A DNA stretch of 64,000 nt, from assembly GCF_024298765.1 (NCBI RefSeq), contig NZ_CP101210.1. The stretch is one strand, 5' to 3'. This document shows positions 7,700 through 58,102 of this stretch, piece after piece. Position 1 is the first letter of the stretch; the number at the start of each line of letters is the position of its first letter. The notes below the pieces were generated by a model. The model saw nothing but the letters and a program-made list of their open reading frames with translations, did not search any database and was not told the DNA's origin. The translations under genes were made by a program, and so were the position numbers. This DNA comes from Escherichia coli. Its GTDB lineage: Bacteria; Pseudomonadota; Gammaproteobacteria; Enterobacterales; Enterobacteriaceae.

Positions 7700-8989
7700 T
7701 TACGGTTTGAAGTCCAATGGCGCGTTTTTGAACACTTCATATACTGCCTGGCTTGGTGGTTTCGGGATCTTCGCAAGTTTAGCTGCTGCCAACGCAGCTT
7801 GACAAAGTGCGGGATCGCCACCTTCAGGTTTGATATCCAGTAACATACCATCGGGTGCCAGTTTTATGCGCAGCGTACAGGTTTTGCCTGCATAGGACGA
7901 TGCGTCATAGAACTTACTTTCGATAGCAGATTTAATCTGCCCGGCATAGTTATTGATATCGGCCCCTGATGCGCCATTGTTTTTAGTATTACCACTCCCG
8001 GCAGGCGAAGCATTGTTCCCTTTCGCCCCTCCCCCCGTTTTCGGTGCATTCTTACCAGAGCTTAGCTCACCGAAAATATCATCTGCCTCTGCGGCAGCTT
8101 TTGCTGCAGCGGCTTTTTCAGCTGCTGCTTTTGCCGCTGCCGCTTTTTTGTCTGCGGCGGCTTTTTCTGCCGCTGCTTTCTTATCAGCTGCTGCCTTTTC
8201 AGCAGCCGCTTTTTCTGCTGCTTTTTTGTCGGCTGCCGCTTTCTCTGCTGCCGCTTTCTTATCAGCTGCAGCCTTTTCAGCAGCCGCTTTCTTCTCAGCT
8301 TCTGCCTTGGCTTTTTCAGCAGCTTCGGTTGCCGCTTTCTTTCTTGCTTCAGCTGCAGCTGCTTCTGTCGCTTCAGCTTTCTTCTTCAGCGCCGCAGCAG
8401 CAGCCTCGGCTTTTTTCTGCGCTTCGACTGCGGCTTTGGCGGCTTCTGCTTCTGCTTTTTTCTTCGCGTCTGCCGCCGCTTTCTTCGCTGCTTCTTCCGC
8501 AGCTTTAGCATCCGCTTCGGCCTTCGCTTTAGCATCCGCTTCGGCCTTCGCTTTAGCATCTGCCGCCGCTTTCGCTGCCGCCTCTTCCGCTTGCTTCTGC
8601 TTTAACTCGGCCTGTTTTGCGGCTTCTTCAGCCTGCTTTTTCTGCTCCTGAGCCGCTAACCGCTCTTTCTCAAGTTGCTTCAGGCGTTCCTGTTCAGCCG
8701 CTTGTTTCTCACGCAGTTCTTCAGCAGCCTGCTGCTCCTTCATCTTGCGCTGCTCATCAGAACGCTTCGCGCTTGATTCCTGGCTTTGCATACGTTTGTA
8801 CTGCTCAACTACCGCACCTGAATCAACCATGACAGCGTCGATGGACGAACCACCGCCGCCTCCGGCTGAAGCTTCTATATTCTCATCGAACGAACTCCAG
8901 ATCAGCGCCGCAAATAAGATGACATGCAGCACTGCTGAAATAATTATCGCCCGCTTGAGCTTGTCGTTTTGTTCGGTTGCCTTTGACAC
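7700..8989 (-). CDS. tolA: Tol-Pal system protein TolA
   Basis: N-terminal TM anchor, long Ala/Lys/Glu-rich helical domain II, conserved C-terminal domain III; 429 aa. Confidence 0.93.
   Translation of the reverse strand: MSKATEQNDKLKRAIIISAVLHVILFAALIWSSFDENIEASAGGGGGSSIDAVMVDSGAVVEQYKRMQSQESSAKRSDEQRKMKEQQAAEELREKQAAEQERLKQLEKERLAAQEQKKQAEEAAKQAELKQKQAEEAAAKAAADAKAKAEADAKAKAEADAKAAEEAAKKAAADAKKKAEAEAAKAAVEAQKKAEAAAAALKKKAEATEAAAAEARKKAATEAAEKAKAEAEKKAAAEKAAADKKAAAEKAAADKKAAEKAAAEKAAADKKAAAEKAAADKKAAAAKAAAEKAAAAKAAAEADDIFGELSSGKNAPKTGGGAKGNNASPAGSGNTKNNGASGADINNYAGQIKSAIESKFYDASSYAGKTCTLRIKLAPDGMLLDIKPEGGDPALCQAALAAAKLAKIPKPPSQAVYEVFKNAPLDFKP
8080..8620. repeat. Imperfect tandem coding repeats in tolA domain II
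   Basis: Directly repeated units, e.g. the 24-nt unit gcatccgcttcggccttcgctttagca repeated in tandem at about 8510-8560, encoding A/K/E/D repeats. Confidence 0.8.
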
Positions 8990-43587: not shown

Positions 43588-44022
43588 TTATTTATGAATA
43601 TAATATAACTGAACATCATATTCATTATCACTTAAAACTATTAGTCGATCGGGAAATGTAAATGCTAATGAAAGATCATATGTTTCATTTATCGAAAACA
43701 AACTCAATATGAAATTTGAAAAATTTTCGACATGAAGAGATATGCAAACATCTCCATTATAGAATATATTGCAAAGAATATCTTTTTTCACATTCAGTGT
43801 ACTTTCAACATCTCTCGCTAGATCATTAATATTTAAAGGTAAATTGAAAACTCTCCTTTCAATAATATTATCGGTTTTATTTATTGCCATTAGCATTTCT
43901 CGATGCCACATGAAGTCATTCTTACGTAAGAATGATACATCAAAGGAAGTGACACCATTTAATTTAGAAGCATAATCTTTTGCTCTAATTAAATTTAATT
44001 TATCTTCAAGGCTAATTTTCAT
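43588..44022 (-). CDS. Putative Rhs-toxin immunity protein (orphan cassette 1)
   Basis: 144-aa low-GC ORF starting 4 nt before the stop of the orphan toxin reading frame; typical rhs-CT/rhsI arrangement. Confidence 0.6.
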   Translation of the reverse strand: MKISLEDKLNLIRAKDYASKLNGVTSFDVSFLRKNDFMWHREMLMAINKTDNIIERRVFNLPLNINDLARDVESTLNVKKDILCNIFYNGDVCISLHVENFSNFILSLFSINETYDLSLAFTFPDRLIVLSDNEYDVQLYYIHK

Positions 44023-44470
44023 AATATATATGATGATCCTTAGTTACAGGGTCATTGATCTTCTGATATCTATCACTTTTGAAATCGTATGTTCTAGGAT
44101 CAGCGCCCGGTTTAGGTTGTCCTGCATGTGCGTGAGGGCCAGGTGCCCTAGGATCTGCCGTGTGCTCGACTACAACTTTCTTACGTCCGTAGGCATCTGT
44201 ATATTCATAATATCGCCCATGAGACCCTAAATCTTCCGAATATTTATAATTTGTTTGTCCCCTTCTTCTAGGATCATTTCCAACGGTCCATTGCCTATTA
44301 GGTTGCTGTGAACGAGGTATGCCCGCAAGATCTTTTGCTTTATTTAGTGCCTGACGACGGTTTCTTAATTCACCACATTTAAGACCAAGCGGATCTATCC
44401 AGCTTACTGGATTAGGCGCGTAAGCATATAAGTTTAGCCCCCCCGCCAGCCCTATCGGGTCGGGTTACGT
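44011..44470 (-). pseudogene. Orphan rhs C-terminal toxin remnant (no start codon; in-frame stop before the DPxGL motif)
   Basis: Reverse-strand frame reads ...[46 protein letters not shown] followed by a 125-aa unique domain ending at the immunity gene; not in the ORF track because it lacks a start. Confidence 0.7.
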
Positions 44471-44634
44471 AAATGTTCCACAGTCCGAGTCGTAGTACCT
44501 CAGAAGGTTGCAGTGCAATCCCGCCTTGCGACATCAAGGCATAGTTTCAGAAAAAGTAAGGAGCAATCACCATACCCCAATTCACTGGGTGCTAAATAAT
44601 ATCTGGTAACATCCCTTACTTCAATTCTATTTCA

Positions 44635-45030
44635 TTACAACTTCTTTACTTTCCATATTCTTTGCGCAGCTAAAAAAGATACTCCTTTGAACCAAGACGC
44701 ACATTCAATAACTTGTTCCCATGAATATATTTTATGTGAGCTAAATTTTATCGATTCATCTTGGTTCATTATCTCAATAAAATAATATCCTTTATTATAA
44801 TCTCTTTTTTCTATTCTATCTTCAGCTCTTGCCGAACGTATAGAAATAACACAATCATCTAATAAACAAAATCTTTTCTTTATAATCGCATCATCTTGGT
44901 TCCATGGATTTGTACTTGCCATTTGTTCTGATTGTTTCAGCTCATTCACTACTGTATACCAAATAGCTTCGGTATCACTTGCCTTTGCATTCTCTCTATC
45001 AGACTCGGATCTAAATATAATTTTGTCCAT
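44635..45030 (-). CDS. Hypothetical protein, possibly an orphan immunity gene
   Basis: 131-aa low-GC ORF between H-repeat copy 2 and the orphan toxin remnant; no recognisable motif. Confidence 0.4.
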   Translation of the reverse strand: MDKIIFRSESDRENAKASDTEAIWYTVVNELKQSEQMASTNPWNQDDAIIKKRFCLLDDCVISIRSARAEDRIEKRDYNKGYYFIEIMNQDESIKFSSHKIYSWEQVIECASWFKGVSFLAAQRIWKVKKL

Positions 45031-45107
45031 TTTAATAATCCAAATGTAAATTACTTAAAATACCCTCTGCCTCATTCCAGGCATTGACATGGGAACCCAG
45101 GGAAAGA

Positions 45108-46244
45108 TTACGAAAGCCCGCTCCCAGCAAGGACTGACGCCAGATAGTTTCTGTCCATGGCTGCTTTTCGCATCTTACGTCTTAACCCTGCCTTGAATAC
45201 CTTATCATTCGTCAAAATATTAATAGCGATGTGCCGTATCCCTGAAAATAATTCTGCTGCATTTCCTCTTCTTATTTTGCAGTCGTCTTCATTCATTACC
45301 ACGTCCAGACGCCAGTGCAGCTTATTCTCCACGTGCCAGTGGTTTCGGATTGCTGTGGCGAACTTCTCTGCGGTTAAATCAGCAGAACTGATATAATATC
45401 TGACCGTCATTTCTGGCTCTTTCTTTTGTTCTGCTATTATTGACCGAAAGGAGACTGCCACGCATAATTTCTTCAGACCTTTCCATTCAAACGTGAAATC
45501 AATAAGTTCATCAGGGACATCGCAAACAATATGAAGACGGATTTCTTCTCTGCCGTGACTTTTTTCACTAATTGCGTAACTGTCATGCTCTGGATTATTT
45601 AATTCTTTCAGTGGGAATTTTTCCTCAAAGGCTTTATTAAGCCGCCCCTGATTTCCTTTTACAGCGAATAAATAATCACCGCCCTGTTTTTGTATCTTCT
45701 CTGCGATATCTTTCTGGCACCCCATCGCATCAGTTGTGATAATTTTTCCTTTAATATCCAACATGTTAAGAAGTTCAGGGATAGCTGTGATCTCATTGGA
45801 TTTCTCATCCGTCCTGATCTGTCCGATGACCAGACTGTGCATTGTTGAGAACGCACTAATGACATGAATCGCTCCCCTGCGGCGACTCTTGTCATAAGAA
45901 TGCCGGAGCGTTTTTCCATCAATTGCAATAACGTCTTTATCATCTGAAGAATGGCAGTCACGCATCCAGTTAATAAAGCACTCGTGAAATTTTGCAGGAC
46001 TGATACAGGATACAACTCTGGCAATGGTATCGTGAACAGGAATACCATTTTCAAAATCACCATATTGCTTCAAAAAATCGAGATGTGTTTCCCCAAAATC
46101 CTCTATATCTTCCCAGCCTTCTGCACAAGAAATAACGGCACAAATAGTCAACAGTAGAATATCCGACAATTTATGTTCCACTTTCCAGGCTTGTCTGTAA
46201 TCGGGGATAATAGAAATATGTTCCATCAATTTTTTAAGTTCCAT
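45108..46244 (-). CDS. H-repeat-associated protein (ISAs1-family transposase), intact copy 2
   Basis: 378-aa ORF of the YhhI/YdcC/YbfD H-rpt type; element left end about 45094 (aagattacgaaagcccgc). Confidence 0.9.
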
Positions 46245-46374
46245 TTTGTTCTCCTTAATTATGTAAGGAGTATTTGACCATGTATACGCAATAAAAAACA
46301 GCTTCAGGTAATGAGGAATATCTCAATTTTTAAACATAAAATGCGAATTATTTAGTACAAAAAAGCAGCGTTAC

Positions 46375-46725
46375 GTGATCTTTCCCTGGTTAATCATGGC
46401 TGAACACGATATTACGCCAGAAATCACCATTTCCAAAACACAGCGCCGCTATAAAGTCGGCTATGTCAGAGCCCGCCACATAAACAGCAAAACCTACATG
46501 ACCACGTACTACTCACGACACCCCAGCCTGAACCTCAAGGGCGACTGGCTGAAAGAGGCCGGATTTGATACCGGGCGGGGTGTCACGGTGAAGATTTCGG
46601 AGGGGTGCCTGACCATCATCGCTGACAGTGACGAGGTGCAGGAACTGCGGGAGGAACTTTATCAGGTTAAACAGGTGGTTAAGGGGATGCGGAGCGGGAT
46701 GTTTAGTGTGCTGAACGATAATTAA
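46375..46725 (+). CDS. SymE-like toxin (AbrB/SpoVT-fold type I toxin family), intact copy
   Basis: 116-aa ORF from GTG (or 109 aa from ATG at 46396); contains the SymE-family core LKGDWLKEAGFDTGRGVTVKISEGCLTI. Confidence 0.75.
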   Translation: MIFPWLIMAEHDITPEITISKTQRRYKVGYVRARHINSKTYMTTYYSRHPSLNLKGDWLKEAGFDTGRGVTVKISEGCLTIIADSDEVQELREELYQVKQVVKGMRSGMFSVLNDN

Positions 46726-46734
46726 ATAATAAAA

Positions 46735-46765
46735 AGCCGGGAAGATTTAATTTTCTTTCCGGCTT
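46735..46765 (-). terminator. Hairpin terminator between the SymE-like gene and the immunity gene
   Basis: gccgggaaga...tctttccggc hairpin flanked by an A-run on the plus strand (U-run for the minus-strand transcript); same motif at 43540-43572 and 51983-52018. Confidence 0.55.
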
Positions 46766-46776
46766 TGTCTAATTAA

Positions 46777-47172
46777 TTATTCAGGAAATTTTCTATTTTT
46801 ATATGATGACCATAAGTGAGTGATCGACCAAGAGTTTTCCTTTCCGAGTACAAAACTTTTGGAGATTATCTCAATATCATCAGATATACGCGAAGATATT
46901 TCAGAATTATTAATCACCCTGAATGAGTATTTAAATGCCTTTTCTCGCAAGGAATCAATAAACTCAATATCATCATCCTGAAAACTTTCCTTATCTAATG
47001 AATTAAACTCACTCATCCAGCAATCATCAAACTCCGGTTCATCTCTTGAGTCTAATGCACTATCAACATTTAATGATTTAAGAAAATCAAAAAATGACGG
47101 GGTGGATAAACAGTTATCAATTTCAATTAGCTTATTATTAATCATCACATTAACCCTTGTCCTTTGAGCCAA
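46777..47172 (-). CDS. Putative Rhs-toxin immunity protein (orphan cassette 2)
   Basis: 131-aa acidic low-GC ORF immediately 3' of and overlapping the GHH-type orphan toxin. Confidence 0.6.
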   Translation of the reverse strand: MAQRTRVNVMINNKLIEIDNCLSTPSFFDFLKSLNVDSALDSRDEPEFDDCWMSEFNSLDKESFQDDDIEFIDSLREKAFKYSFRVINNSEISSRISDDIEIISKSFVLGKENSWSITHLWSSYKNRKFPE

Positions 47173-47790
47173 ACCTCTATTAAATCAACAGCCTTGGATG
47201 GTGTCACATTAGTACCTAGCGTATAAGTTCCATTTGGAGATTTAACATCAACTCTGATGTCATCTAATTTTGAATACGCTTTTCTGTAAGCATCAAATAA
47301 CTCTTTATCCGAACCAAGGAAATCACCTTGTCTTGGACCTATCACATCTCGTTCCGCATGATGTAAACGCCAGTGATTATGTTCTGGATTTTCTCCTCTA
47401 GGGAATAATGTTGGGCGAGTTTTATCAGATCGGGAAACTTCAAACGGACGTCCTTTAGATTTACGAACCGCAGGAACATGATGTCCAGATTCACTCACGC
47501 CCATACACTTCTTCGTTAATCCAAGGGGATCGATCCAGCTTAACGGATTCGGTGCATAAGCATACAGGTTTAACCCGCCTCTTAGCCCTATCGGGTCCGT
47601 TACCATGAACCGCCCGACATCCGGATCATAGTACCTGTGCAGATTGTAATGCAGCCCCGTTTCCCTGTCGAGGTACTGTCCCTGGTAGCGCAGGTTCTGC
47701 TCCACCCCGCCGTGGTCCTTCTCCTGTATCGTGTTACCCCAGACCTGATACCCCGTCTCCCACACGATTTTCCCGTCACTGTCCGTCATC
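47145..47790 (-). CDS. Orphan rhs C-terminal fragment with GHH-signature HNH/EndoVII-like nuclease toxin domain
   Basis: Core end ([38 protein letters not shown]) followed by a unique domain containing SGHHVPAV and EHNHWRLHH; 5' end truncated by the H-repeat copy 3 insertion; the track Met is fortuitous. Confidence 0.65.
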
Positions 47791-47802
47791 TCCAGGGCAA
47801 GA

Positions 47803-48940
47803 TTACGAAAGCCCGCACCCCGCAAGGACTGACGCCAGATAGTTTCTGTCCATGGCTGCTTTTCGCATCTTACGTCTTAACCCTGCCTTGAATACCTTAT
47901 CATTCGTCAAAATATTAATAGCGATGTGCCGTATCCCTGAAAATAATTCTGCTGCATTTCCTCTTCTTATTTTGCAGTCGTCTTCATTCATTACCACGTC
48001 CAGACGCCAGTGCAGCTTATTCTCCACGTGCCAGTGATTTCGGATCGCTGTGGCGAACTTTTCTGCGGTTAAATCAGCAGAACTGATATAATATCTGACC
48101 GTCATTTCTGGCTCTTTCTTTTGTTCTGCTATTATGGACCGAAAGGAGACTGCCACGCATAATTTCTTCAGTCCTTTCCATTCAAACGTGAAATCAATAA
48201 GTTCATCAGGGACATCACAAACAATATGAAGACGGGTTTCTTCTCTGCCGTGACTCTTTTCACTAATTGAGTAACTGTCGTGCTCTGGATTATTTAATTC
48301 TTTCAGCGGAAATTTTTCCTCAAAGGCTTTATTAAGCCGCCACCTGATTTCCTTTTACAGCGAATAAATAATCACCTCCCTGTTTTTGTATCTTCTCTGC
48401 AATATCTTTCTGGCAACTCATCGCATCAGTTGTGATGATTTTTCCTTTAATATCCAGCATGTTAAGAAGTTCAGGGATAGCTGTAATTTCATTGGATTTC
48501 TCATCCGTCCTGATCTGTCCGATGACCAGACTGTGCATTGTTGAGAACGCACTAATGACATGAATCGCTCCCCTGCGGCGACTCTTGTCATAAGAATGCC
48601 GGAGCGTTTTTCCATCAATTGCAATAACGTCTTTATCATCTGAAGAATGGCAGTCACGCATCCAGTTAATAAAGCACTCGTGAAATTTTGCAGGACTGAT
48701 ACAGGATACAACTCTGGCAATGGTATCGTGAACAGGAATACCATTTTCAAAATCACCATATTGCTTCAAAAAATCGAGATGTGTTTCCCCAAAATCCTCT
48801 ATATCTTCCCAGCCTTCTGCACCAGAAATAACGGCACAAATAGTCAACAGTAGAATATCCGACAATTTATGTTCCACTTTCCAGGCTTGTCTGTAATCGG
48901 GGACAATAGAAATATGTTCCATCAATTTTTTAAGTTCCAT
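47803..48940 (-). pseudogene. H-repeat (ISAs1-family) transposase pseudogene, copy 3 (frameshifted)
   Basis: Split into two ORFs (47803-48156 and 48332-48940) by a 1-bp insertion (aagccgccacctg versus aagccgcccctg in the intact copy). Confidence 0.85.
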
Positions 48941-49080
48941 TTTGTTCTCCTTAATTATGTAAGGAGTATTTGATCATGTATAAGCAATAAAAAACAGCTT
49001 TAGGTAATGAGGAATATCTCAAATCTTAAACATAAAATGCCAATTATTTAGTACAAAAAAGTAGCGTTACGTGATCTTTC

Positions 49081-49570
49081 CCTAAAACGCAGACCCAGTT
49101 GTGCATAGTACACATGGTACGCAACAGCCTGCGGTTCGTGACGTGGAAAGACTATAAAGCGGTAACCCGTGACCTGAAACAGGTTTACCGCGCGGCCACG
49201 GAAGAAGGCGTGTTGCAGGCGCTGGATGCGTTCGGGAAGGAATGGGATGCACGGTACCCGCAGATAAGTCGCAGCTGGCGGGCAAACTGACCGAATGTTG
49301 CCACCTTCTTCGTGTACCCGGAGGCGATCCGAAAGGTTATCTACACCACTAACGCAATCGAATCGCTGAATAGCGTCATCAGACATGCGATAAAGAAAAG
49401 GAAAGTGTTCCCGACAGATGAATCGGTGAAAAAAGTGGTGTGGCTGGCTATCCAGTCAGCCTCACAGAAATGGACGATGCCACTTCAGGACTAGCGGATA
49501 GCCATGAGTCGCTTTATTATCGAGTTCGGTGACCGCCTTGACGGTCACTTCTGAGAAAGGCATTTACACA
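49081..49570 (+). mobile_element. IS256-family (mutator-type) transposase gene remnant, 5'-truncated and frameshifted
   Basis: ORFs 49099-49290 and 49312-49494 encode the C-terminal part of an IS256-type transposase (...YPQISRSWRAN / IRKVIYTTNAIESLNSVIRHAIKKRKVFPTDESV...); begins abruptly at the shared leader sequence. Confidence 0.75.
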
Positions 49571-49619: not shown

Positions 49620-49946
49620 TTAATCACCCGGCTTCTCCCAACATTTTATCTTTTCTATTTCTCTCTCAATATCATCCATATCATCATCTCCAAGATCGGT
49701 ATTAAAATTTTCAGTAATAACCCTTCTTATTTCAGCCAACCGATGTGTAATATTTTTATCATCAATAAATTTAGTGGTTTCTTTAAAGTAAGAATTCAAC
49801 AATTTATCATCAATAACGTTCTGCTCTATACCATTGAAATAATACCTTGCAATATTCTTAAGTGATATCAATATGTACTCTACCTCACTTAGAATATAAA
49901 GGGCATCCTTCCCGGGTATATTAATTACATCATTGTTTTTATTCAT
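49620..49946 (-). CDS. Putative Rhs-toxin immunity protein (orphan cassette 3)
   Basis: 108-aa acidic low-GC ORF 1 nt downstream of the 601-aa orphan rhs. Confidence 0.6.
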   Translation of the reverse strand: MNKNNDVINIPGKDALYILSEVEYILISLKNIARYYFNGIEQNVIDDKLLNSYFKETTKFIDDKNITHRLAEIRRVITENFNTDLGDDDMDDIEREIEKIKCWEKPGD

Positions 49947-49947
49947 A

Positions 49948-51753
49948 TTATTTACGCCGAGTTATTTTTGCATTATCAGAAAGAACAATATCACCTTTCA
50001 CAGTCAATTCATCTATATGGTATCGAGGGTTTGTTACCCACTCTAATTGCTCGTTAGGTACATCTGTTTCCACATAATCTCTACCTTTCCCACGACCTAT
50101 TTGATATTTCGCCTCTATGTCTACTTGACTGAGTGGTTTTTTATTCGCAGGTTCCAAATATACACGACCGTTATCATGCGCCTTAATTATCCCACTTTCA
50201 GCAATCGCATTTGAACCTTTACGATTAGTATAATGCCGCACACGAGTAGTTCCATTACAGAGCTCTTTTTTTAATCCGAGTGGATCAATATATTTCAGCG
50301 GATTAGGCGCATAAGCATATAAGTTCAACCCACCCGCCAGCCCTATCGGATCCGTTACAATGAACCGCCCGACATCCGGATCATAGTACCTGTGCAGATT
50401 GTAATGCAGCCCTGTTTCCCTGTCGAGGTACTGTCCCTGGTAGCGCAGGTTCTGCTCCACCCTGCCGTGGTCCTTCTCCTGTATCGTGTTACCCCAGACC
50501 TGATACCCCGTCTCCCACACGATTTTCCCGTCACTGTCCGTCATCTCTTCCGGCGCGCCGTTCACATCCGTGTGAAAATACAGTATCCGGTTCGGGCCCT
50601 CTTTGCCCGCCTTATCCACCCGCGCCAGCGGTTCATAACTCCCCGGGTCCCTGTAGATGTACAGGCTGTCTGTTCCCTCCGGCCTGCTCTCCTGCGCCAG
50701 CCGCATTCCGTCCCATAAAAATGCCGTCCGGTTGTACGGTTTACCGTCAGGGCTGATGTGCTGTTTTTCCGTCCGCCTCCCCAGCGCATCGTACACATAC
50801 CGGTACGTTCCCCGCGCTGTCGTCACTTCCACCATCCGGTGTTCCGCATCATAACGGTAACTCTGCGTGCCGCTCCGCCCCTCCTTTTCCACCGCACGGC
50901 CAAATTCGTCGTAACGGTAGTGCACACCACGGTAAGACATCAGCCGGTTGAACGGCACCACGCTGTTTTCTGCCGTGGCCCTTTCCCCCGCGCGCCGCCC
51001 CAGCAGGTTTCCCGCCGCGTCGTACTGCCAGCTCGCCAGATACCCCTCATCCTCCGAGCGGCACGCCGTGATGCGCCCCGTGGGGTCGTAGAAGTAATCC
51101 GTTTCCCCCCGCCGGCTGTGCCGCGTCTTCAGCAGTTCATCCTCGCCACTGTAGCTGTACTGCCGGTCCGTGAACGTCTCCGGTACCACCCCGCGCATCC
51201 CGCTGTATGTCTCCCTGCGCTTCAGCCGCCCGGCGGGGTCGTAAAGCTGCCGCGTGCTCAGTCGCCCCTGACTTCTGAGCACTTCACGGTGCAGGGCGTC
51301 ACGAGTGAACTCGCTGATGACCTCCCGGTCCAGATTTATCTGCTGGAGATGGCCGCTGCCGTAGTACAGATGACGCTGCGTTCTGCCGTCCGGAAAGGTG
51401 GTGGCTGTCCGGTTGCTGAGTTCATCGTACTGATGGGTCAGGACGCCCTGCGCCGTCTCCTCAGTCAGCATCCGCCCCAGTCTGTCGTAACTGAAACGGA
51501 TAATCTCCGGTGCGTCTGTTTCCCCGGCATCCGACCGTCGGCGGCGGATTTCCAGTAACTGGTCTGCCGCATCATGGACGTATTCCGTACGGCTATCGGC
51601 TGTCTCCTTTGCCGTGAGCCGGCCCGCCGCATCACGTGCCAGCCGGTGGCGGATTTCACCGCCCCGGTCCCCGGTGAACACCACTTCCGTGACCGCGTTC
51701 AGCGCGTTGTAGCGGTACGTCTGGCGGCAGCCGTCGTGCTGCCAGCGCAGCAT
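49948..51753 (-). CDS. Orphan rhs fragment: about 480 aa of Rhs core plus a distinct C-terminal toxin domain
   Basis: YD-repeat core near-identical to the main rhs, then DPIGLAGG...DPLGL and a unique roughly 108-aa tail (KKELCNGTTRVRHYTNRKGSNAIAESGII...); rhs homology starts at DGCRQTYRY, so the track Met is fortuitous. Confidence 0.8.
   Translation of the reverse strand: MLRWQHDGCRQTYRYNALNAVTEVVFTGDRGGEIRHRLARDAAGRLTAKETADSRTEYVHDAADQLLEIRRRRSDAGETDAPEIIRFSYDRLGRMLTEETAQGVLTHQYDELSNRTATTFPDGRTQRHLYYGSGHLQQINLDREVISEFTRDALHREVLRSQGRLSTRQLYDPAGRLKRRETYSGMRGVVPETFTDRQYSYSGEDELLKTRHSRRGETDYFYDPTGRITACRSEDEGYLASWQYDAAGNLLGRRAGERATAENSVVPFNRLMSYRGVHYRYDEFGRAVEKEGRSGTQSYRYDAEHRMVEVTTARGTYRYVYDALGRRTEKQHISPDGKPYNRTAFLWDGMRLAQESRPEGTDSLYIYRDPGSYEPLARVDKAGKEGPNRILYFHTDVNGAPEEMTDSDGKIVWETGYQVWGNTIQEKDHGRVEQNLRYQGQYLDRETGLHYNLHRYYDPDVGRFIVTDPIGLAGGLNLYAYAPNPLKYIDPLGLKKELCNGTTRVRHYTNRKGSNAIAESGIIKAHDNGRVYLEPANKKPLSQVDIEAKYQIGRGKGRDYVETDVPNEQLEWVTNPRYHIDELTVKGDIVLSDNAKITRRK
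50362..51735. repeat. 1.37-kb direct repeat, copy A (orphan rhs core)
   Basis: Essentially identical to 52880-54253 (offset 2518 bp); the antisense track ORFs 50392-50718 and 50758-51558 recur identically at 52910-53236 and 53276-54076. Confidence 0.9.
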
Positions 51754-51774
51754 CTGCCCAACCGCAGCGACACG

Positions 51775-51978
51775 CCGGTGATCAAAATCAGCGCCAAATG
51801 GCTGAGAGAAGCGGGATTTGAGATCGGCACGGGCGTTACCGTGAAGATCTCGGAAGGCTGCCTGATCCTGCTTGCAGATAACAACGGAGTACAGGAACTG
51901 CGCAGGGAACTTTATCAGGTTAAACAGTCTGTTAAGGGGATGCGGAACGGGATGTTTAGTATGCTGAACGATAATTAA
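51775..51978 (+). pseudogene. SymE-like toxin gene 3' fragment
   Basis: Encodes ...IKISAKWLREAGFEIGTGVTVKISEGCLILLADNNGVQELRRELYQVKQSVKGMRNGMFSMLNDN; 5' part replaced by the orphan rhs junction. Confidence 0.7.
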
Positions 51979-52043: not shown

Positions 52044-52424
52044 CTAAATCAATCTTTTTTTTAATTCCCTTATTTCAGGAGTTAATGCAAAACTGTCTTC
52101 TAAAGATTCGTCATCCAAGGCCCAGTAATTAATAAGATCTATATGATTTTTATAATTATCAAGCAGAGTGTTGAGTGCTTTTACAATAACTTTATCTGAA
52201 GGAGGTACTCCAGAAGATAATAAATCATTACAGACATCAAGGGCTAAAGTCATTAATTCATTCTTCCCTTTTTGTGAGTAGCCATTATTTAAATATGCAG
52301 CAATATATTTACTTAACCACTCTTTAGTTCGATATTTTTCAGGCAGTTCATAAGCCCAATCTTGTGTAAACTTATCACTCACTGGTACACCAAGTTCACT
52401 ACAGATTTTATCTATTTCATTCAT
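52044..52424 (-). CDS. Putative immunity protein for the main Rhs toxin
   Basis: 126-aa low-GC ORF 18 nt downstream of the main rhs stop. Confidence 0.65.
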   Translation of the reverse strand: MNEIDKICSELGVPVSDKFTQDWAYELPEKYRTKEWLSKYIAAYLNNGYSQKGKNELMTLALDVCNDLLSSGVPPSDKVIVKALNTLLDNYKNHIDLINYWALDDESLEDSFALTPEIRELKKRLI

Positions 52425-52441
52425 ATATATCCTTCATTATT

Positions 52442-55400
52442 TTAGTTGTCGTGTGATGAATTGAATGGGAACGATGTACGTACAGAACCGTCGGGTTTTA
52501 CAACAACCCTTGCCATATCTGGAACTACCTCTGTCCCATCAGGTAAATAACCTCGACTTTTTATATTTGTAGGCAATGGCACATCATGCACACCTGGTCC
52601 TTTTTTGGCAACAGAAGCAATAAAATCAGCAGCAGAATTATCATCGAGATATTGTCCAACTTGATGACCTTTATTTCTGGCACGATCAATTAACTGATTT
52701 GGTTTCATTTTCTGTCCGTGTTCAGAAAAGGTGTGACCGTATGTAGGCTTACTTTTTGGATTTCCCCATTTGAAGTCAGATTTAGGACACAATCCAAGTG
52801 GGTCGATCCATGACAGTGGATTAGGTGCATACTGATATAAGTTTAACCCGCCTCTCAGCCCTATCGGGTCCGTTACCATGAACCGCCCGACATCCGGATC
52901 ATAGTACCTGTGCAGATTGTAATGCAGTCCCGTTTCCCTGTCGAGGTACTGTCCCTGGTAGCGCAGGTTCTGCGCCACCCCGCCGTGGTCCTTCTCCTGT
53001 ATCGTGTTACCCCAGACCTGATACCCCGTCTCCCACACGATTTTCCCGTCACTGTCCGTCATCTCTTCCGGCGCGCCGTTCACATCCGTGTGAAAATACA
53101 GTATCCGGTTCGGGCCCTCTTTGCCCGCCTTATCCACCCGCGCCAGCGGTTCATAACTCCCCGGGTCCCTGTAGATGTACAGGCTGTCTGTTCCCTCCGG
53201 CCTGCTCTCCTGCGCCAGCCGCATTCCGTCCCATAAAAATGCCGTCCGGTTGTACGGTTTACCGTCAGGGCTGATGTGCTGTTTTTCCGTCCGCCTCCCC
53301 AGCGCATCGTACACATACCGGTACGTTCCCCGCGCTGTCGTCACTTCCACCATCCGGTGTTCCGCATCATAACGGTAACTCTGCGTGCCGCTCCGCCCCT
53401 CCTTTTCCACCGCACGGCCAAATTCGTCGTAACGGTAGTGCACACCACGGTAAGACATCAGCCGGTTGAACGGCACCACGCTGTTTTCTGCCGTGGCCCT
53501 TTCCCCCGCGCGCCGCCCCAGCAGGTTTCCCGCCGCGTCGTACTGCCAGCTCGCCAGATACCCCTCATCCTCCGAGCGGCACGCCGTGATGCGCCCCGTG
53601 GGGTCGTAGAAGTAATCCGTTTCCCCCCGCCGGCTGTGCCGCGTCTTCAGCAGTTCATCCTCGCCACTGTAGCTGTACTGCCGGTCCGTGAACGTCTCCG
53701 GTACCACCCCGCGCATCCCGCTGTATGTCTCCCTGCGCTTCAGCCGCCCGGCGGGGTCGTAAAGCTGCCGCGTGCTCAGTCGCCCCTGACTTCTGAGCAC
53801 TTCACGGTGCAGGGCGTCACGAGTGAACTCGCTGATGACCTCCCGGTCCAGATTTATCTGCTGGAGATGGCCGCTGCCGTAGTACAGATGACGCTGCGTT
53901 CTGCCGTCCGGAAAGGTGGTGGCTGTCCGGTTGCTGAGTTCATCGTACTGATGGGTCAGGACGCCCTGCGCCGTCTCCTCAGTCAGCATCCGCCCCAGTC
54001 TGTCGTAACTGAAACGGATAATCTCCGGTGCGTCTGTTTCCCCGGCATCCGACCGTCGGCGGCGGATTTCCAGTAACTGGTCTGCCGCATCATGGACGTA
54101 TTCCGTACGGCTATCGGCTGTCTCCTTTGCCGTGAGCCGGCCCGCCGCATCACGTGCCAGCCGGTGGCGGATTTCACCGCCCCGGTCCCCGGTGAACACC
54201 ACTTCCGTGACCGCGTTCAGCGCGTTGTAGCGGTACGTCTGGCGGCAGCCGTCCGGATTTATCTGCTCCGCCAGACGGTCCAGCACGTCATGGCGGAACC
54301 GGTAGCTTTCTCCGTTCTCGTTTGTCAGCGTGACCAGACGCCCGTAAGCATCGTACCCGAACGCCGTCCTGCGCCCCGTCGCGTCTGTCCGGCTGCGCAC
54401 CCGGCCCTGCCCGTCCCGCTGCCAGCGCGTTATCCTCCCCATCGGGCTGGTGTACTTCACCAGCCTGCCCGCCGCGTCCGACTGGTAATTCACCGTGCGG
54501 CCGTCCGCCAGTATCACCTCCGTCAGGTGGCCGCTGTCGTCATACCCGTAGCGCGTGCTGTGGCTCTGCGCGTCTGTCATCCGTATCAGCCGCGTGCGTT
54601 CGTCGTAGAACCAGGCCGTCTGCGAGCCGGAACAGTCCGTGTGCCGCATGAGCTGCCCGTCTTCGTTCCACTGAAGGTATTTATTCCCCCCGCGCGCATC
54701 GGTTATCTGCACCACCTGGCCGTGGCGGTCATACTGATACCGGGTGTTCTGCTGCAGCGGGTCGGTCACCGCAAGAAGATTGCCGCGTTCATCGTACTCA
54801 CAGCACCAGCTGTTCCCCGCCGCGTCCACCTCCGTTTCCGGCTGGTGCCACACCGGGTGCCACTGTGTCTGTGCCACCCGCCCCAGCGGGTCGTGCGTCT
54901 CCGTGATATGCCCCTGCCGGTCATACACATAGCGCCATTTGCCGCCCTGCGCATCGGTCATTCCCAGTAACAGCCGTTCTTCGTCGCTCCAGCGGAACGT
55001 CGTCACCTGCCCGGCTTCGTCCTGGTACGCCGTCACCTGATTCTGCGCGTCCCACTGATGATAACGCGTGCGCCCCAGCCCGTCCGTCACGCACAGCCTG
55101 CGTGACGCCAGGCTCCACGCCAGCCGGTACTGTTCACCGCTGTCCGTGTGGTGCCCCGTCACCCGCCACGCTGCGTCATCCGGGCCTTCATACCAGCTCC
55201 ACTGGTAATAATACCCTTCGCCGCCCGGCTGGCGGTGCAGGGTCATGCAGTGGTTTTCGTCGTAAGCAAACTCGCGCAGCAGGTGTCCCGTGCTGTCGTA
55301 CACGCCGTTCAGGTCGCCGGCCTCGTCATAGCGGTAACGACGCAGCAGTAAAGGAGCCGTCTCAGGGAAATGCTGATAAATCTGTGTCACCCGCCGGGGA

Positions 55401-57100
55401 TGCGCCGCCAGTTCATAATGCAGACGGATGCACGGACGCTGCTGTTCACCGCTGATTTGCGTGATGCGCCCCAGCTCGTCGTAGTACAGATTCAGACAGT
55501 TGCTGTTGCGGTCGCCCAGCATTTTCAGCCGCTGGCGCTGCGGGTGATGCGGGTCGGCTTCAAACAGAAAAAACTGCCCGTCATCGCTGCTGATAAGCCA
55601 GTGCCCCTGCTCACCCCGCCTTACCGCCAGTCCTTCGCCGGGGCTGTAAAACCCGCTCCCCGGCAGCACGGCCTCCATATCCAGGCGTCGCCCCATGCCC
55701 GACACAAAGGTCATGCAGTTTTCGTCAGCAGTACCCGGCGTGCGCCCGAGGCTGACTTCATACATCACGCTCCAGCCCTGCCCGAACATCCCTTCCGTGC
55801 GGTCGTCACGACTGCTGTACACGCGCTGCCAGTCCAGCGGAAAGTGGCCCGGCAGACTGAAATCGAAGTCATCGTCATCGGCCAGATATTTGGCTCCGGT
55901 GGCGGCATTGACCGGATGCGGAAGGGCACTGATGGCCTTCTGCGTCATCACCCCCATCCCGACACTGGCAGCAAAACAGGCGATTTTAGAAAGCATTTTG
56001 CCCGGGCGAAGAAACATCAGCGCCACGGTTGCCACCAGGGTTATCTGCGACCTGCCGCTTCTGATATCCCTGACCACCAGTAACGGACCGCCAATGCGGA
56101 CATCCGGTGACACAAACGCCCCGTTCCCCGGCTCATTCACCACCCTGGCCTCGCAGGTGCAGCGTGCCCCGCTGCGTGCCGCCGGCTGGCTGTTGATACG
56201 CACATCCCGCGCGCCTTCCGCGATATATTCCGCTGCGGGCGGTTCATCATCGCCTTTGAACAGATTACTGATGCTGCCAATAACCGCATTCACTCCCTGA
56301 AAGGCGGTTTCCAGCATACCGTCCGGACTCAGCAGGTTAAGGGCCGTTCCCAGGGGGTCATCCAGAAAGGCGGCTTTTTTTTGTGCGAGAAACTGCGTCA
56401 GTGAGGAGGGATGTTTATGGCAGTCGATTTTATCGTCAGGGGTCGGGGTGGAGCCCGGGGCCGCACTGGCCACGGTGGGCTGCCATAGTTCCGACACAAA
56501 ATGTGTCACGCCATCCACCATTTCAGAACGCCCTTCTTCCGTACTGAGCTGGTCGTGCAGCGCCCGGGACATCAGCACAGGCCCTGTCACCGGGTTAACC
56601 GCCAGGGCTATGGCCCCCGCCATTTCCAGATATTCCCCGGCCACATCCAGGAACGTTCTGGCATCCTCCTGACGCTGCGCTTCTTCCTGTTCCGCCTTCG
56701 CCTGCGCCTCCTGCGCCTCAATGTCCTGCCGCGATGCCGCAGTCGCCGCGGCCCGCGCGGCAGGTTTGCTGTTGATCCATGTGTCGCCAGAGCCGGTGAG
56801 GATGTAACCTTCAATCTGAGGCGGGAAAAGCATATTTGCGAGGTCTGAACAGACTTCGCTGACCGTGTCTGTCACGCCGGTGTACACCATCGCCACACCC
56901 GCCACAAAACCGGTCAGCACGACGGCCGTGCACCCCATCGTGATCCCCACTGACGCCGCCAGTAACGAGGTTGTGCCGACAATGAGGGCATCAATAACGA
57001 CATTTGCGGCCACCTCCAGCACCGCCCCCAGCACATCTGCCATAAACGACGTATGCAGCAGGGCATCACCCTGCCTTGCCGCCCAGAATGCCTCTTCCAT
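52442..57100 (-). CDS. Full-length Rhs polymorphic toxin with N-terminal prePAAR-like motif and hydrophobic segment (T6SS effector-like), YD-repeat shell and variable C-terminal toxin domain
   Basis: 1552-aa ORF; N-terminus MEEAFWAARQGDALLH fits AARxxDxxxH, followed by about 55 hydrophobic residues and PAAR-containing segments; YD repeats; core ends PxxxxDPxGL (WIDPLGL) about 115 aa before the stop. Confidence 0.85.
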   Translation of the reverse strand: MEEAFWAARQGDALLHTSFMADVLGAVLEVAANVVIDALIVGTTSLLAASVGITMGCTAVVLTGFVAGVAMVYTGVTDTVSEVCSDLANMLFPPQIEGYILTGSGDTWINSKPAARAAATAASRQDIEAQEAQAKAEQEEAQRQEDARTFLDVAGEYLEMAGAIALAVNPVTGPVLMSRALHDQLSTEEGRSEMVDGVTHFVSELWQPTVASAAPGSTPTPDDKIDCHKHPSSLTQFLAQKKAAFLDDPLGTALNLLSPDGMLETAFQGVNAVIGSISNLFKGDDEPPAAEYIAEGARDVRINSQPAARSGARCTCEARVVNEPGNGAFVSPDVRIGGPLLVVRDIRSGRSQITLVATVALMFLRPGKMLSKIACFAASVGMGVMTQKAISALPHPVNAATGAKYLADDDDFDFSLPGHFPLDWQRVYSSRDDRTEGMFGQGWSVMYEVSLGRTPGTADENCMTFVSGMGRRLDMEAVLPGSGFYSPGEGLAVRRGEQGHWLISSDDGQFFLFEADPHHPQRQRLKMLGDRNSNCLNLYYDELGRITQISGEQQRPCIRLHYELAAHPRRVTQIYQHFPETAPLLLRRYRYDEAGDLNGVYDSTGHLLREFAYDENHCMTLHRQPGGEGYYYQWSWYEGPDDAAWRVTGHHTDSGEQYRLAWSLASRRLCVTDGLGRTRYHQWDAQNQVTAYQDEAGQVTTFRWSDEERLLLGMTDAQGGKWRYVYDRQGHITETHDPLGRVAQTQWHPVWHQPETEVDAAGNSWCCEYDERGNLLAVTDPLQQNTRYQYDRHGQVVQITDARGGNKYLQWNEDGQLMRHTDCSGSQTAWFYDERTRLIRMTDAQSHSTRYGYDDSGHLTEVILADGRTVNYQSDAAGRLVKYTSPMGRITRWQRDGQGRVRSRTDATGRRTAFGYDAYGRLVTLTNENGESYRFRHDVLDRLAEQINPDGCRQTYRYNALNAVTEVVFTGDRGGEIRHRLARDAAGRLTAKETADSRTEYVHDAADQLLEIRRRRSDAGETDAPEIIRFSYDRLGRMLTEETAQGVLTHQYDELSNRTATTFPDGRTQRHLYYGSGHLQQINLDREVISEFTRDALHREVLRSQGRLSTRQLYDPAGRLKRRETYSGMRGVVPETFTDRQYSYSGEDELLKTRHSRRGETDYFYDPTGRITACRSEDEGYLASWQYDAAGNLLGRRAGERATAENSVVPFNRLMSYRGVHYRYDEFGRAVEKEGRSGTQSYRYDAEHRMVEVTTARGTYRYVYDALGRRTEKQHISPDGKPYNRTAFLWDGMRLAQESRPEGTDSLYIYRDPGSYEPLARVDKAGKEGPNRILYFHTDVNGAPEEMTDSDGKIVWETGYQVWGNTIQEKDHGGVAQNLRYQGQYLDRETGLHYNLHRYYDPDVGRFMVTDPIGLRGGLNLYQYAPNPLSWIDPLGLCPKSDFKWGNPKSKPTYGHTFSEHGQKMKPNQLIDRARNKGHQVGQYLDDNSAADFIASVAKKGPGVHDVPLPTNIKSRGYLPDGTEVVPDMARVVVKPDGSVRTSFPFNSSHDN
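52880..54253. repeat. 1.37-kb direct repeat, copy B (main rhs core)
   Basis: Essentially identical to 50362-51735. Confidence 0.9.
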
Positions 57101-57118: not shown

Positions 57119-57349
57119 TTAATTCGTCCCGGCTTCCTGCCGCATCCTGAAGCGCAGATTCTTTTTAATTTCAGCCCAGCGCGTCATATCAGCCGGGGTC
57201 AGCGGTGTGGTTCGGGCGTAGGTGAAGGCCATCATGACCCGCTCACCCGGCAATACAAATGCCACCTGACACTGGTACACCTGCTCGTTACCCCGGAGAA
57301 ACTGGCTCTGTATTTGCAAACCGCCTCATTGAGATAATATTCCGTCATA
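57119..57349 (-). pseudogene. Possible degenerate Eag-type (DUF1795-like) chaperone gene remnant upstream of rhs
   Basis: ATG at 57347-57349 opens MTEYYLNEAV... (resembles the DUF1795 N-terminus) but stops after 38 codons; a second frame continues 66 codons to 57119; total length is about half that of an intact Eag gene. Confidence 0.25.
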
Positions 57350-58102
57350 ATAGAAGTCGTCCTTTTTAATAAATGAATTATTTATTGACAGGTTCTGTTT
57401 TTTAATCATGAATGTAATGTCTATCACCGCTTTACAGCACTCTTTATCTTTCAAGCCGTAATCACTAATAACATTAAGCAATTACCCATATTTACAATGA
57501 CCGGAACTGATATGCCGTTATGTATTTAACAATCCCAACATATTCACCATACAAATAAAATCACGAGTAACAAACACACTACCGCCTCCATATAAAAAAT
57601 GGACAGCTTATAAAATTGCATCTTGCATAGAAAGGGCTGAGATATCGAGTGTATTTTAATTATCAACTATAAATGTTGAATATTTTCATTAACAGAAACA
57701 CATCTTATCCCATTAGATATGTTAACAATCAATTATTCTTAACATATCACTAAAGTATATATTACTCTCTTTACTATCTGTTTTTATTGCGGTAGCGATA
57801 TTAATAGCAAAATTCGGAATTTATTTAGATGCTGGAATAAGAAAAAGTGATGGCGGCTTTCTCACCTTACCCTGAAGTTTCAGGAAAGTGTGTAAGGAAG
57901 GATGCAACCTAACTGGAGATTTCTGAGGATCTAGTTGCTTAGAGCGACAATGAAGGTGAACGCATCCAGAGTAGTCCTATGAAAGGATACTATTGAAAAT
58001 TGATGCTAAAACAGTGATTAAATGAACAACACCATGGAACCCGTTGATTCAAAACGCCTAAACCAGCCCCCTGATACGAGGCTGGCTTAAACGCGCAGGC
58101 AA

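Follow-up and report, generated by a model that had tools for sequence, protein, structure and literature searches.

A probable class I prePAAR Rhs effector with a predicted RNase A-like toxin domain at a decayed vgrG-eag-rhs locus of Escherichia coli

Background

Class I prePAAR type VI secretion system (T6SS) effectors are Rhs proteins with one N-terminal transmembrane domain (TMD) region, while class II effectors are about 450 amino acids (aa) long and have two such regions (Ahmad et al. 2020, PMC7773334). Escherichia is among the genera screened in that study, and class I effectors are a known class that is already described in this genus. Here we analyse a 64,000-nucleotide stretch of Escherichia coli DNA (assembly GCF_024298765.1, contig NZ_CP101210.1), hereafter the window, in which an rhs gene of full length spans positions 52442–57100. 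The gene product is probably a class I prePAAR T6SS Rhs effector with an RNase A-like toxin domain and a 126-aa immunity protein, encoded at a decayed locus and served by VgrG and Eag in trans. To the known class this analysis adds a fold-based assignment of the toxin tail together with its candidate catalytic residues and immunity partner, the make-up of a decayed module and of its complementary partner locus, and doubts about delivery that arise from the clpV and vgrG genes of the lineage.

The described class I systems to which the locus was compared are RhsA-EagR1-VgrG1 of P. protegens, Rhs1-SciW of Salmonella and RhsA of Enterobacter cloacae (ECL_01567/ECL_01566). The window protein shares with them a prePAAR motif, a single TMD region and a PAAR domain, followed by a DUF6531 plug with an H/P motif, a YD cocoon, a DPxGL end and a C-terminal toxin (PMC7773334, PMC8765631). 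As in those systems, a DcrB-family Eag and a VgrG are encoded upstream of the effector, here in an intact paralogous module. In contrast to those systems, the adjacent vgrG and eag genes are pseudogenised and the toxin domain is a different one.

A further likeness is to SF0266/SF0267 of Shigella flexneri, a prePAAR Rhs effector whose Eag chaperone (SF3490) is encoded at a distant locus and was co-purified with it (PMC7773334). The Shigella effector is split into two open reading frames (ORFs), whereas the effector described here is intact and the dead chaperone gene still adjoins it. The vgrGO1-eagR-Rhs-CT modules (Ma et al. 2017b), as outlined in a review (PMC6730261), come from the same species and have a like gene order, namely vgrG, DUF1795/eagR, PAAR-Rhs-CT and an immunity gene, with vgrGO1 and eagR both reported as required for Rhs-CT delivery; the copy in the window differs in being decayed and dependent on partners in trans. 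That review also mentions "neighborless" Rhs-CTs in E. coli and, among the types Rhs-CT1 to Rhs-CT10, lists CT5 to CT8 as putative RNases. Experiments have thus established the effector class in E. coli.

Domain architecture of the Rhs protein

An earlier reading of the window, made from its letters alone (the sequence-only reading), had proposed a 1552-aa Rhs protein with an exact prePAAR motif, a hydrophobic N-terminal segment and PAAR-containing segments, arranged as in prePAAR/TMD T6SS effectors. The gene and the parts of its product are the following.

52442–57100, minus strand: full-length rhs gene, an ORF of 1552 aa with matches to YD repeats, Rhs_assc_core, PAAR and DUF6531
57053–57082, minus strand: prePAAR motif AARQGDALLH, residues 7–16 (regular-expression match)
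56867–57049, minus strand: single N-terminal TMD region, residues 18–78, with 2–3 helices, the predicted Eag-binding segment (Kyte-Doolittle profile)
56747–56812, minus strand: first part of the PAAR domain, residues 97–118, INSKPAAR (positions 8–29 of Pfam PAAR_motif, weak by itself; aligned with the PAAR regions of RhsA and Tre23)
56243–56746, minus strand: insert or linker between the PAAR halves, residues 119–286 (absent in Tre23; shorter and partly conserved in P. protegens RhsA)
56138–56230, minus strand: second part of the PAAR domain, residues 291–321, INSQPAAR...CTCEA (positions 39–69 of Pfam PAAR_motif PF05488, E 2.1e-5; weak match to NCBIfam T6SS_PAAR_dom)
55919–56047, minus strand: hydrophobic seal/anchor-like segment, residues 352–394, up to the predicted autocleavage site H395/P396 (aligned with the RhsA stretch before the H304/P305 site)
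55682–55918, minus strand: DUF6531 plug/cork domain, residues 395–473 (Pfam PF20148, E 3e-18)
53024–55681, minus strand: YD-repeat cocoon, residues ~474–1359 (TIGR01643 YD_repeat_2x, 11 stretches, E 2.9e-65)
52790–53023, minus strand: Rhs-associated core / aspartyl-protease plug, residues 1360–1437 (TIGR03696, E 1.7e-28; Pfam RHS PF03527)
52445–52789, minus strand: C-terminal toxin domain, residues 1438–1552, of predicted RNase A-superfamily fold

Homology to two T6SS effectors of solved structure, P. protegens RhsA (7q97, E 4e-28) and Photorhabdus Tre23 (7pq5), is seen in the N-terminal 400 residues, so the architecture is not due to chance. The alignment with RhsA falls into three blocks; that with Tre23 runs from the prePAAR motif onward. 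The protein starts with MEEAFWAARQGDALLH, where AARQGDALLH fits the consensus AARxxDxxxH exactly, as had been proposed, and aligns with AAREGDPIKH of Tre23. The Pfam prePAAR_I hidden Markov model (HMM) gives a weak match to this N-terminus (E 1.8). The proposed hydrophobic segment is found at residues 18–78, the sole strongly hydrophobic region of the protein, with Kyte-Doolittle means of up to 2.2; the TMD call was made from hydropathy alone, using a 19-residue window and a threshold mean of at least 1.5. A class II assignment was rejected, since one region rises above this threshold and the stretch at residues 352–392 aligns with the seal/anchor of RhsA, in which a seal peptide and an anchor helix precede the H304/P305 autocleavage site (Guenther et al. 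2022, PMC8765631).

The PAAR tetrapeptide occurs at residues 113 (INSKPAAR) and 306 (INSQPAAR). Both of these segments had been pointed out in the sequence-only reading, and their relation to each other can now be refined: because the two Pfam matches cover model positions 8–29 and 39–69, they are complementary halves of one split PAAR domain, and the presence of two PAAR domains was rejected. The halves are contiguous in Tre23. In the window protein they are separated by ~170 residues, about twice the RhsA version, whose shorter form is revealed by the three-block alignment. This insert consists of an acidic, Gln-rich low-complexity run (QDIEAQEAQAKAEQEEAQRQEDAR), a hydrophobic stretch and a conserved WQPTVASAAPGS...DCHKHP. 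Profile searches with PAAR and Rhs core models, suggested earlier as a check, returned PF05488 and TIGR03696 at the E-values listed above.

Both motifs of RhsA-type double autoproteolysis (PMC8765631) are present, H/P at the start of the plug and DPxGL...DPxGL near the C-terminus. From the first of them, N-terminal autocleavage is predicted at H395/P396 (ALPH395/P396VNAATG). The second spans residues 1410–1437 (DPIGL...WIDPLGL), the core ending with WIDPLGL at residue 1437 ahead of the 115-aa tail, and this aspartyl-protease motif predicts a second autocleavage after L1437.

By all features that can be read from sequence the protein carries every mark of a class I prePAAR effector: a prePAAR motif, one TMD region, PAAR, an Rhs/YD cage and a C-terminal toxin. 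The remaining mark, an Eag in the same genome, was found through proxies, the adjacent eag being a pseudogene. Here and below, statements about whole genomes are drawn from near-identical public genomes, as the window's own genome was seen only in these 64 kb.

The chromosomal position would fit an ordinary RhsA-D-type element with no special link to Eag. The locus occupies the K-12 rhsC site, adjoining ybfA, and, as in K-12, orphan cassettes and ISAs1/H-repeat elements come after it. Such an element is refuted by the protein itself and has next to no credibility: the protein's identity to K-12 RhsC amounts to 29% and its NCBIfam NF041261 (RHS_core) score to 330 bits against a cutoff of 2000, and on these two grounds an RhsA-D type was rejected. 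Moreover, K-12 RhsC begins with a bare PAAR (MSGKPAARQGD...) and has neither prePAAR nor TMD, and an eag remnant lies directly upstream of the window gene. A TMD-like region and a PAAR domain are thus both present in a protein whose N-terminus is not of the RhsA-D type.

The C-terminal toxin domain and its immunity gene

The 115-aa tail has no family match in Pfam, NCBIfam or PADLOC, and no match to it was found among the named Ntox families in Zhang et al. 2012. The sequence-only reading could name no family for it either; that part stands, and the tail can now be given a predicted fold. A word-indexed search found ~30 close relatives, mostly orphan fragments, in Pectobacterium, Xenorhabdus, Cronobacter, Proteus and Paenibacillus. 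An exhaustive profile search yielded 556 representatives of the domain, 62 of them at E ≤ 1e-30. It is always located at the extreme C-terminus of the carrier proteins, which range from ~100 to 5800 aa. Among the carriers in a scan of 29 longer relatives are Rhs, PT-HINT, pyocin-S, filamentous haemagglutinin, VgrG (Phage_GPD), eCIS core, DUF4280 and PT-TG proteins, and this diversity of carrier architectures is the signature of a polymorphic-toxin domain.

With 22 sequences, a structure model lacked the N-terminal 24 residues, which bear the histidines; a model from an alignment of 87 sequences covered them. The predicted structure has the fold of the RNase A superfamily, and the toxin most likely acts as an endoribonuclease that needs no metal, with the bacterial RNase A-like (CdiA-CT Ykris) fold. 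The prototype, CdiA-CT of Yersinia kristensenii 33638 (5E3E), is a metal-independent RNase of RNase A fold that belongs to Pfam RNAse_A_bac (PF18431). Its activity depends on His175, Arg186, Thr276 and Tyr278, the last often being Phe in homologues (Batot et al. 2017, PMC5435912).

Primers given in the same paper translate to ...DR-H-VGKTEAELLN-R-V... and ...II-T-G-Y-PTP. The counterparts in the present family, at similar spacing, are ...SE-H24-GQKMKPNQLID-R36-A... and ...VR-T105-S-F107-P. Across the 87 aligned sequences, H24 is conserved at 97%, R/K36 at 97%, T/S105 at 95%, F/Y107 at 99%, P108 at 100% and H19 at 91%. These motifs make His24 (possibly also His19), Arg36 and Thr105-x-Phe107 the most likely candidates for catalytic residues of a putative RNase. 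In this family an N-terminal histidine pair, G-H-T-F-x-x-H-G, occurs together with the Ykris-type Arg and the C-terminal T-x-[F/Y]-P. It differs from CdiA-CT Ykris in that a further histidine is conserved (GH19TFxxH24G), as two-histidine RNases have, and in that the scaffold of the toxin is Rhs/T6SS and not CdiA.

Comparison at the level of sequence tells against the RNase assignment. The toxin is 12% identical to 5e3e and has no match to PF18431 at E up to 10, that model being touched by two of the 29 remote relatives at E ~0.02; likewise, the family profiles (A1 and the deeper A3) reached neither 5e3e nor any other solved protein among PDB sequences. The assignment therefore rests on fold and motifs, and what it likely provides is a fold and a mechanism, not membership of the curated family PF18431. 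The same negative matches leave some room for a different role of the RNase A-like fold, be it as a DNase, in non-catalytic binding, at the membrane or on another target. We regard such a role as unlikely.

The toxin domain is followed by two genes that recur with it.

52044–52424, minus strand: cognate immunity gene for a 126-aa protein, its start 17 nt beyond the rhs stop codon; homologues follow the toxin elsewhere
51736–51978, plus strand: symE-like gene, convergent with the immunity gene (NCBIfam SymE, E 5.6e-10; RefSeq annotation)

Homologues of the 126-aa protein are encoded directly downstream of the toxin in Pectobacterium parmentieri (68% identity) and Paenibacillus (26%, E 6e-11), and the protein itself matches no family in Pfam, NCBIfam or PADLOC. 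The Pectobacterium locus also contains a convergent symE-like gene, as well as a full-length prePAAR Rhs upstream. As the same layout is seen in assembly L015, the symE-like gene is a conserved companion of the toxin/immunity cassette.

Decay of the locus and partner genes in trans

The rhs gene is flanked by ybfA-kdpFABC on one side and by orphan rhs fragments, small genes, symE-like genes and ISAs1 elements on the other. The 6.5-kb locus is 99.9% identical to that of E. coli GPEC1035, isolated from chicken, where the counterpart of the gene is annotated as an RHS repeat-associated core protein. At least 80% of this locus is present in 187 of 5426 complete genomes, many of them from avian or extraintestinal isolates. 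Two remnants are found upstream of rhs.

57119–57348, minus strand: pseudogene of eag (DcrB/DUF1795 chaperone), from alignment to the intact eag of GPEC1258; incomplete in RefSeq
57398–57440, minus strand: 3'-terminal remnant of vgrG, ~11 recognisable codons, ...AVIDITFMIKK (DNA alignment, ~80% nucleotide identity to the intact gene)

The eag pseudogene retains its ribosome-binding site, start codon and ~9 codons. An internal deletion of 223 bp has removed codons ~10–84 and shifted the frame, and the last 67 codons are 98.5% identical to the intact protein. The RefSeq view of a DcrB-related gene with a missing N-terminus is thus replaced by that of an internal deletion with the start codon kept. 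The vgrG remnant lies directly upstream of the eag pseudogene, the remainder of the adjacent vgrG having been destroyed. The locus is a decayed copy of a vgrG-eag-rhs module, and the sequence-only reading, which had seen no adjacent vgrG or intact eag, was right; both survive as remnants.

Between the vgrG remnant and ybfA lies ~660 bp of AT-rich (~34% GC) non-coding DNA (57441–58099). Neither the K-12 ybfA-rhsC spacer nor VgrG is homologous to this DNA, and homology to K-12 stops directly after ybfA. Assembly L015 has a complete module beside a DUF1722 gene, from the family of K-12 ybgA, and this neighbour suggests the same chromosomal site.

An intact module is located between ansP and yddH, at the site of the K-12 rhsE pseudogene, ~0.8 Mb away in GPEC1035 and D10. 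It contains, in order, two small genes, a 664-aa VgrG (TIGR03361, 561 bits), a 150-aa Eag (WP_000141612.1; Pfam DcrB, E 1e-18), rhs, small genes and symE. Between eag codon ~85 and the rhs gene, and on into it, this paralogue and the window share 99.7% identity. For 23 of the 25 genomes that best match the ybfA locus, intact vgrG and eag are listed at 100% identity; direct inspection confirmed both genes in GPEC1035, and they are also present in D10. The two small genes, which always precede this orphan vgrG (L007 11515–12398; L015 2449–3332), encode a 176-aa protein without a family and a 118-aa protein that weakly matches a putative T6SS immunity periplasmic lipoprotein, and could form a further effector-immunity pair of the vgrG island.

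The Rhs protein of the rhsE locus in D10 (L007 4401–8777) is 100% identical to the window protein over residues ~101–1400, which points to recent gene conversion between the two loci. Its reading frame is shifted at DPIGLAGG/INLYQYAPNP, so that the core end and another kind of toxin are no longer in frame. GPEC1035 is annotated with this protein accession too, and the rhsE-locus Rhs of GPEC1258 (L002 8778–13101) is annotated as frameshifted as well. Since the rhsE-locus Rhs is frameshifted before its toxin and the ybfA locus has lost vgrG and eag, the two loci have decayed complementarily: the rhsE site keeps the spike and the chaperone, the ybfA site the complete effector and its immunity gene.

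Delivery by the type VI secretion system

For a class I effector with this architecture, the Eag (DcrB/DUF1795) chaperone would shield the N-terminal transmembrane helices at residues 18–78, and the prePAAR motif would complete the split PAAR domain, which would cap the cognate VgrG spike. The YD-repeat cocoon would enclose the toxin after autoproteolysis at H395/P396 and after DPLGL(1437). Upon firing, the TMDs could assist entry of the 115-aa toxin into the target cytoplasm, and the 126-aa product of the next gene would neutralise the toxin. Because the rhsC/ybfA locus is a decayed module copy, delivery would have to rely on the VgrG and Eag from the intact genes at the genome's rhsE site.

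A search for T6SS core genes, also proposed in the sequence-only reading, was successful in the closest genomes, which have a 13-gene cluster in addition to the intact Eag and VgrG in trans. All 13 core genes are found beside the metZWV tRNAs in D10. The cluster is ~100% identical in GPEC1035 and nearly all top ybfA-locus genomes, occurs in 1439 of the 5426 genomes, and is the only T6SS core cluster found in the lineage, the genomes of which were not scanned exhaustively for further T6SSs.

Several observations weigh against an effector that is delivered at present. Beyond the loss of the adjacent vgrG and the 223-bp deletion in eag, a scan upstream of rhs found no promoter or terminator sites above the level of shuffled sequence. 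The chaperone in trans may not be a perfect partner: in GPEC1035 and D10, the TMD segment of the Rhs beside the intact Eag (L007 ~8500–8700) is ~60% identical to residues ~28–88 of the window protein (window 56830–57020), the flanks being near-identical. In GPEC1258, the identical Eag WP_000141612.1 adjoins a TMD identical to that of the window Rhs. This mosaic patch may reflect allelic exchange of the chaperone-binding region.

The machinery itself is damaged. The tssH (clpV) gene is annotated as frameshifted in both D10 (L004 14485–17110) and GPEC1035 (L006 501–3126), owing to an 11-bp deletion at codon ~466 relative to the intact allele (2626 vs 2637 bp) that leaves AAA2 cut off from the N-domain and AAA1. 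Some 75 complete genomes lie in the tssH identity band of 99% or more; in two of them listed at 100%, 13P477T and GPEC1258, the match has the same span of 2626 bp. At the aspV island of D10 no T6SS was found. The orphan VgrG of the rhsE site is 24% identical to the VgrG of the metZWV cluster and 33% identical to that of the O157/aspV-type cluster, a cluster that also encodes TagH and an RHS core protein. It is the sole vgrG-like DNA match in one same-lineage genome, even at low stringency. A homology search with this VgrG for its native T6SS type in other genera was filled up by near-identical E. coli entries. In another E. coli strain, killing by Rhs-CT3 was lost in a ClpV2 mutant of T6SS2, according to the review cited above (PMC6730261). 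With tssH frameshifted and the orphan VgrG distant from the cluster VgrG, active delivery of the effector in this lineage is doubtful, with about an even chance or a lower one.

These findings lend substance to the view that the effector is stranded, that is, its ORF is intact only because the decay is recent, and the lineage, with vgrG and eag gone from the module, ClpV broken and no T6SS of the subtype of the orphan VgrG, no longer exports it. The eag and vgrG lesions, the tssH deletion shared by GPEC1035 and D10 with ~75 genomes in the same identity band, the frameshift in the rhsE-locus Rhs, the isolated and divergent orphan VgrG and the empty aspV island of D10 all fit it, and loss of T6SS is documented in E. 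coli lineages (PMC10711316). If stranded, the toxin and its immunity gene may be maintained as a selfish or addiction-like unit, or serve other Rhs loci as material for recombination; Salmonella Rhs elements are reported to be able to work inside the cell in the manner of toxin-antitoxin modules (PMC7043789). Against this view, the 4.6-kb ORF and the immunity gene are intact in ~187 complete genomes, and intact VgrG and Eag are kept in the same genomes. A split ClpV might, moreover, keep partial function, and some T6SSs fire at reduced efficiency without ClpV. We consider a stranded effector a serious possibility, falling a little short of an even chance. It bears on present function only and does not conflict with the assignment to class I prePAAR effectors.

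Orphan cassette and neighbouring debris

Further downstream of the immunity and symE-like genes lies a second, incomplete rhs element.

49948–51753, minus strand: orphan rhs core-plus-toxin cassette, a 601-aa ORF without the N-terminal delivery region (RefSeq: partial RHS protein)
49620–49946, minus strand: putative immunity gene of the orphan cassette, 108 aa, placed by its position immediately 3' of the orphan toxin

The orphan cassette has 98.4% nucleotide identity to the main rhs core and then a divergent tail of ~107 aa (KKELCNGTTRVRHYTNRKG...). Neither this tail nor the 108-aa protein matches a family in Pfam, NCBIfam or PADLOC. A 108-aa gene is found at the same position after rhs in assembly L015, the comparison being one of position and length.

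The adjoining region contains more Rhs-locus debris; features in 43588–49494 were mapped from the GPEC1035 annotation. They include a polymorphic toxin of HNH/endonuclease VII fold (~44012–44455) with small genes adjoining, an intact ISEc1 transposase of the ISAs1 family (45108–46244), a partial RHS fragment (47145–47792) with a small downstream gene, a frameshifted ISAs1 transposase (47803–48940) and a transposase fragment (49090–49494). A second symE-like ORF (46375–46725, plus strand) has the Hfq-binding small RNA isrA of Rfam on its antisense strand (46467–46595, minus strand; 117.6 bits, E 4e-26). No isrA match was found at the shorter symE-like gene 51736–51978. Antisense regulation of the symE-like toxins of Rhs loci is a possible role of isrA.

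Implications

Current understanding is not overturned by these findings. The analysis offers a predicted fold and a testable mechanism for a toxin domain that is unnamed in curated libraries and recurs in hundreds of polymorphic toxins with very different delivery systems. The locus is also an instructive case of decay in an avian/extraintestinal E. coli lineage, where the spike/chaperone locus, the toxin/immunity locus and the T6SS ATPase gene are each damaged. An annotation that a T6SS effector is present does not equal a working weapon, and this lineage provides a natural system for the action of chaperone and VgrG in trans.

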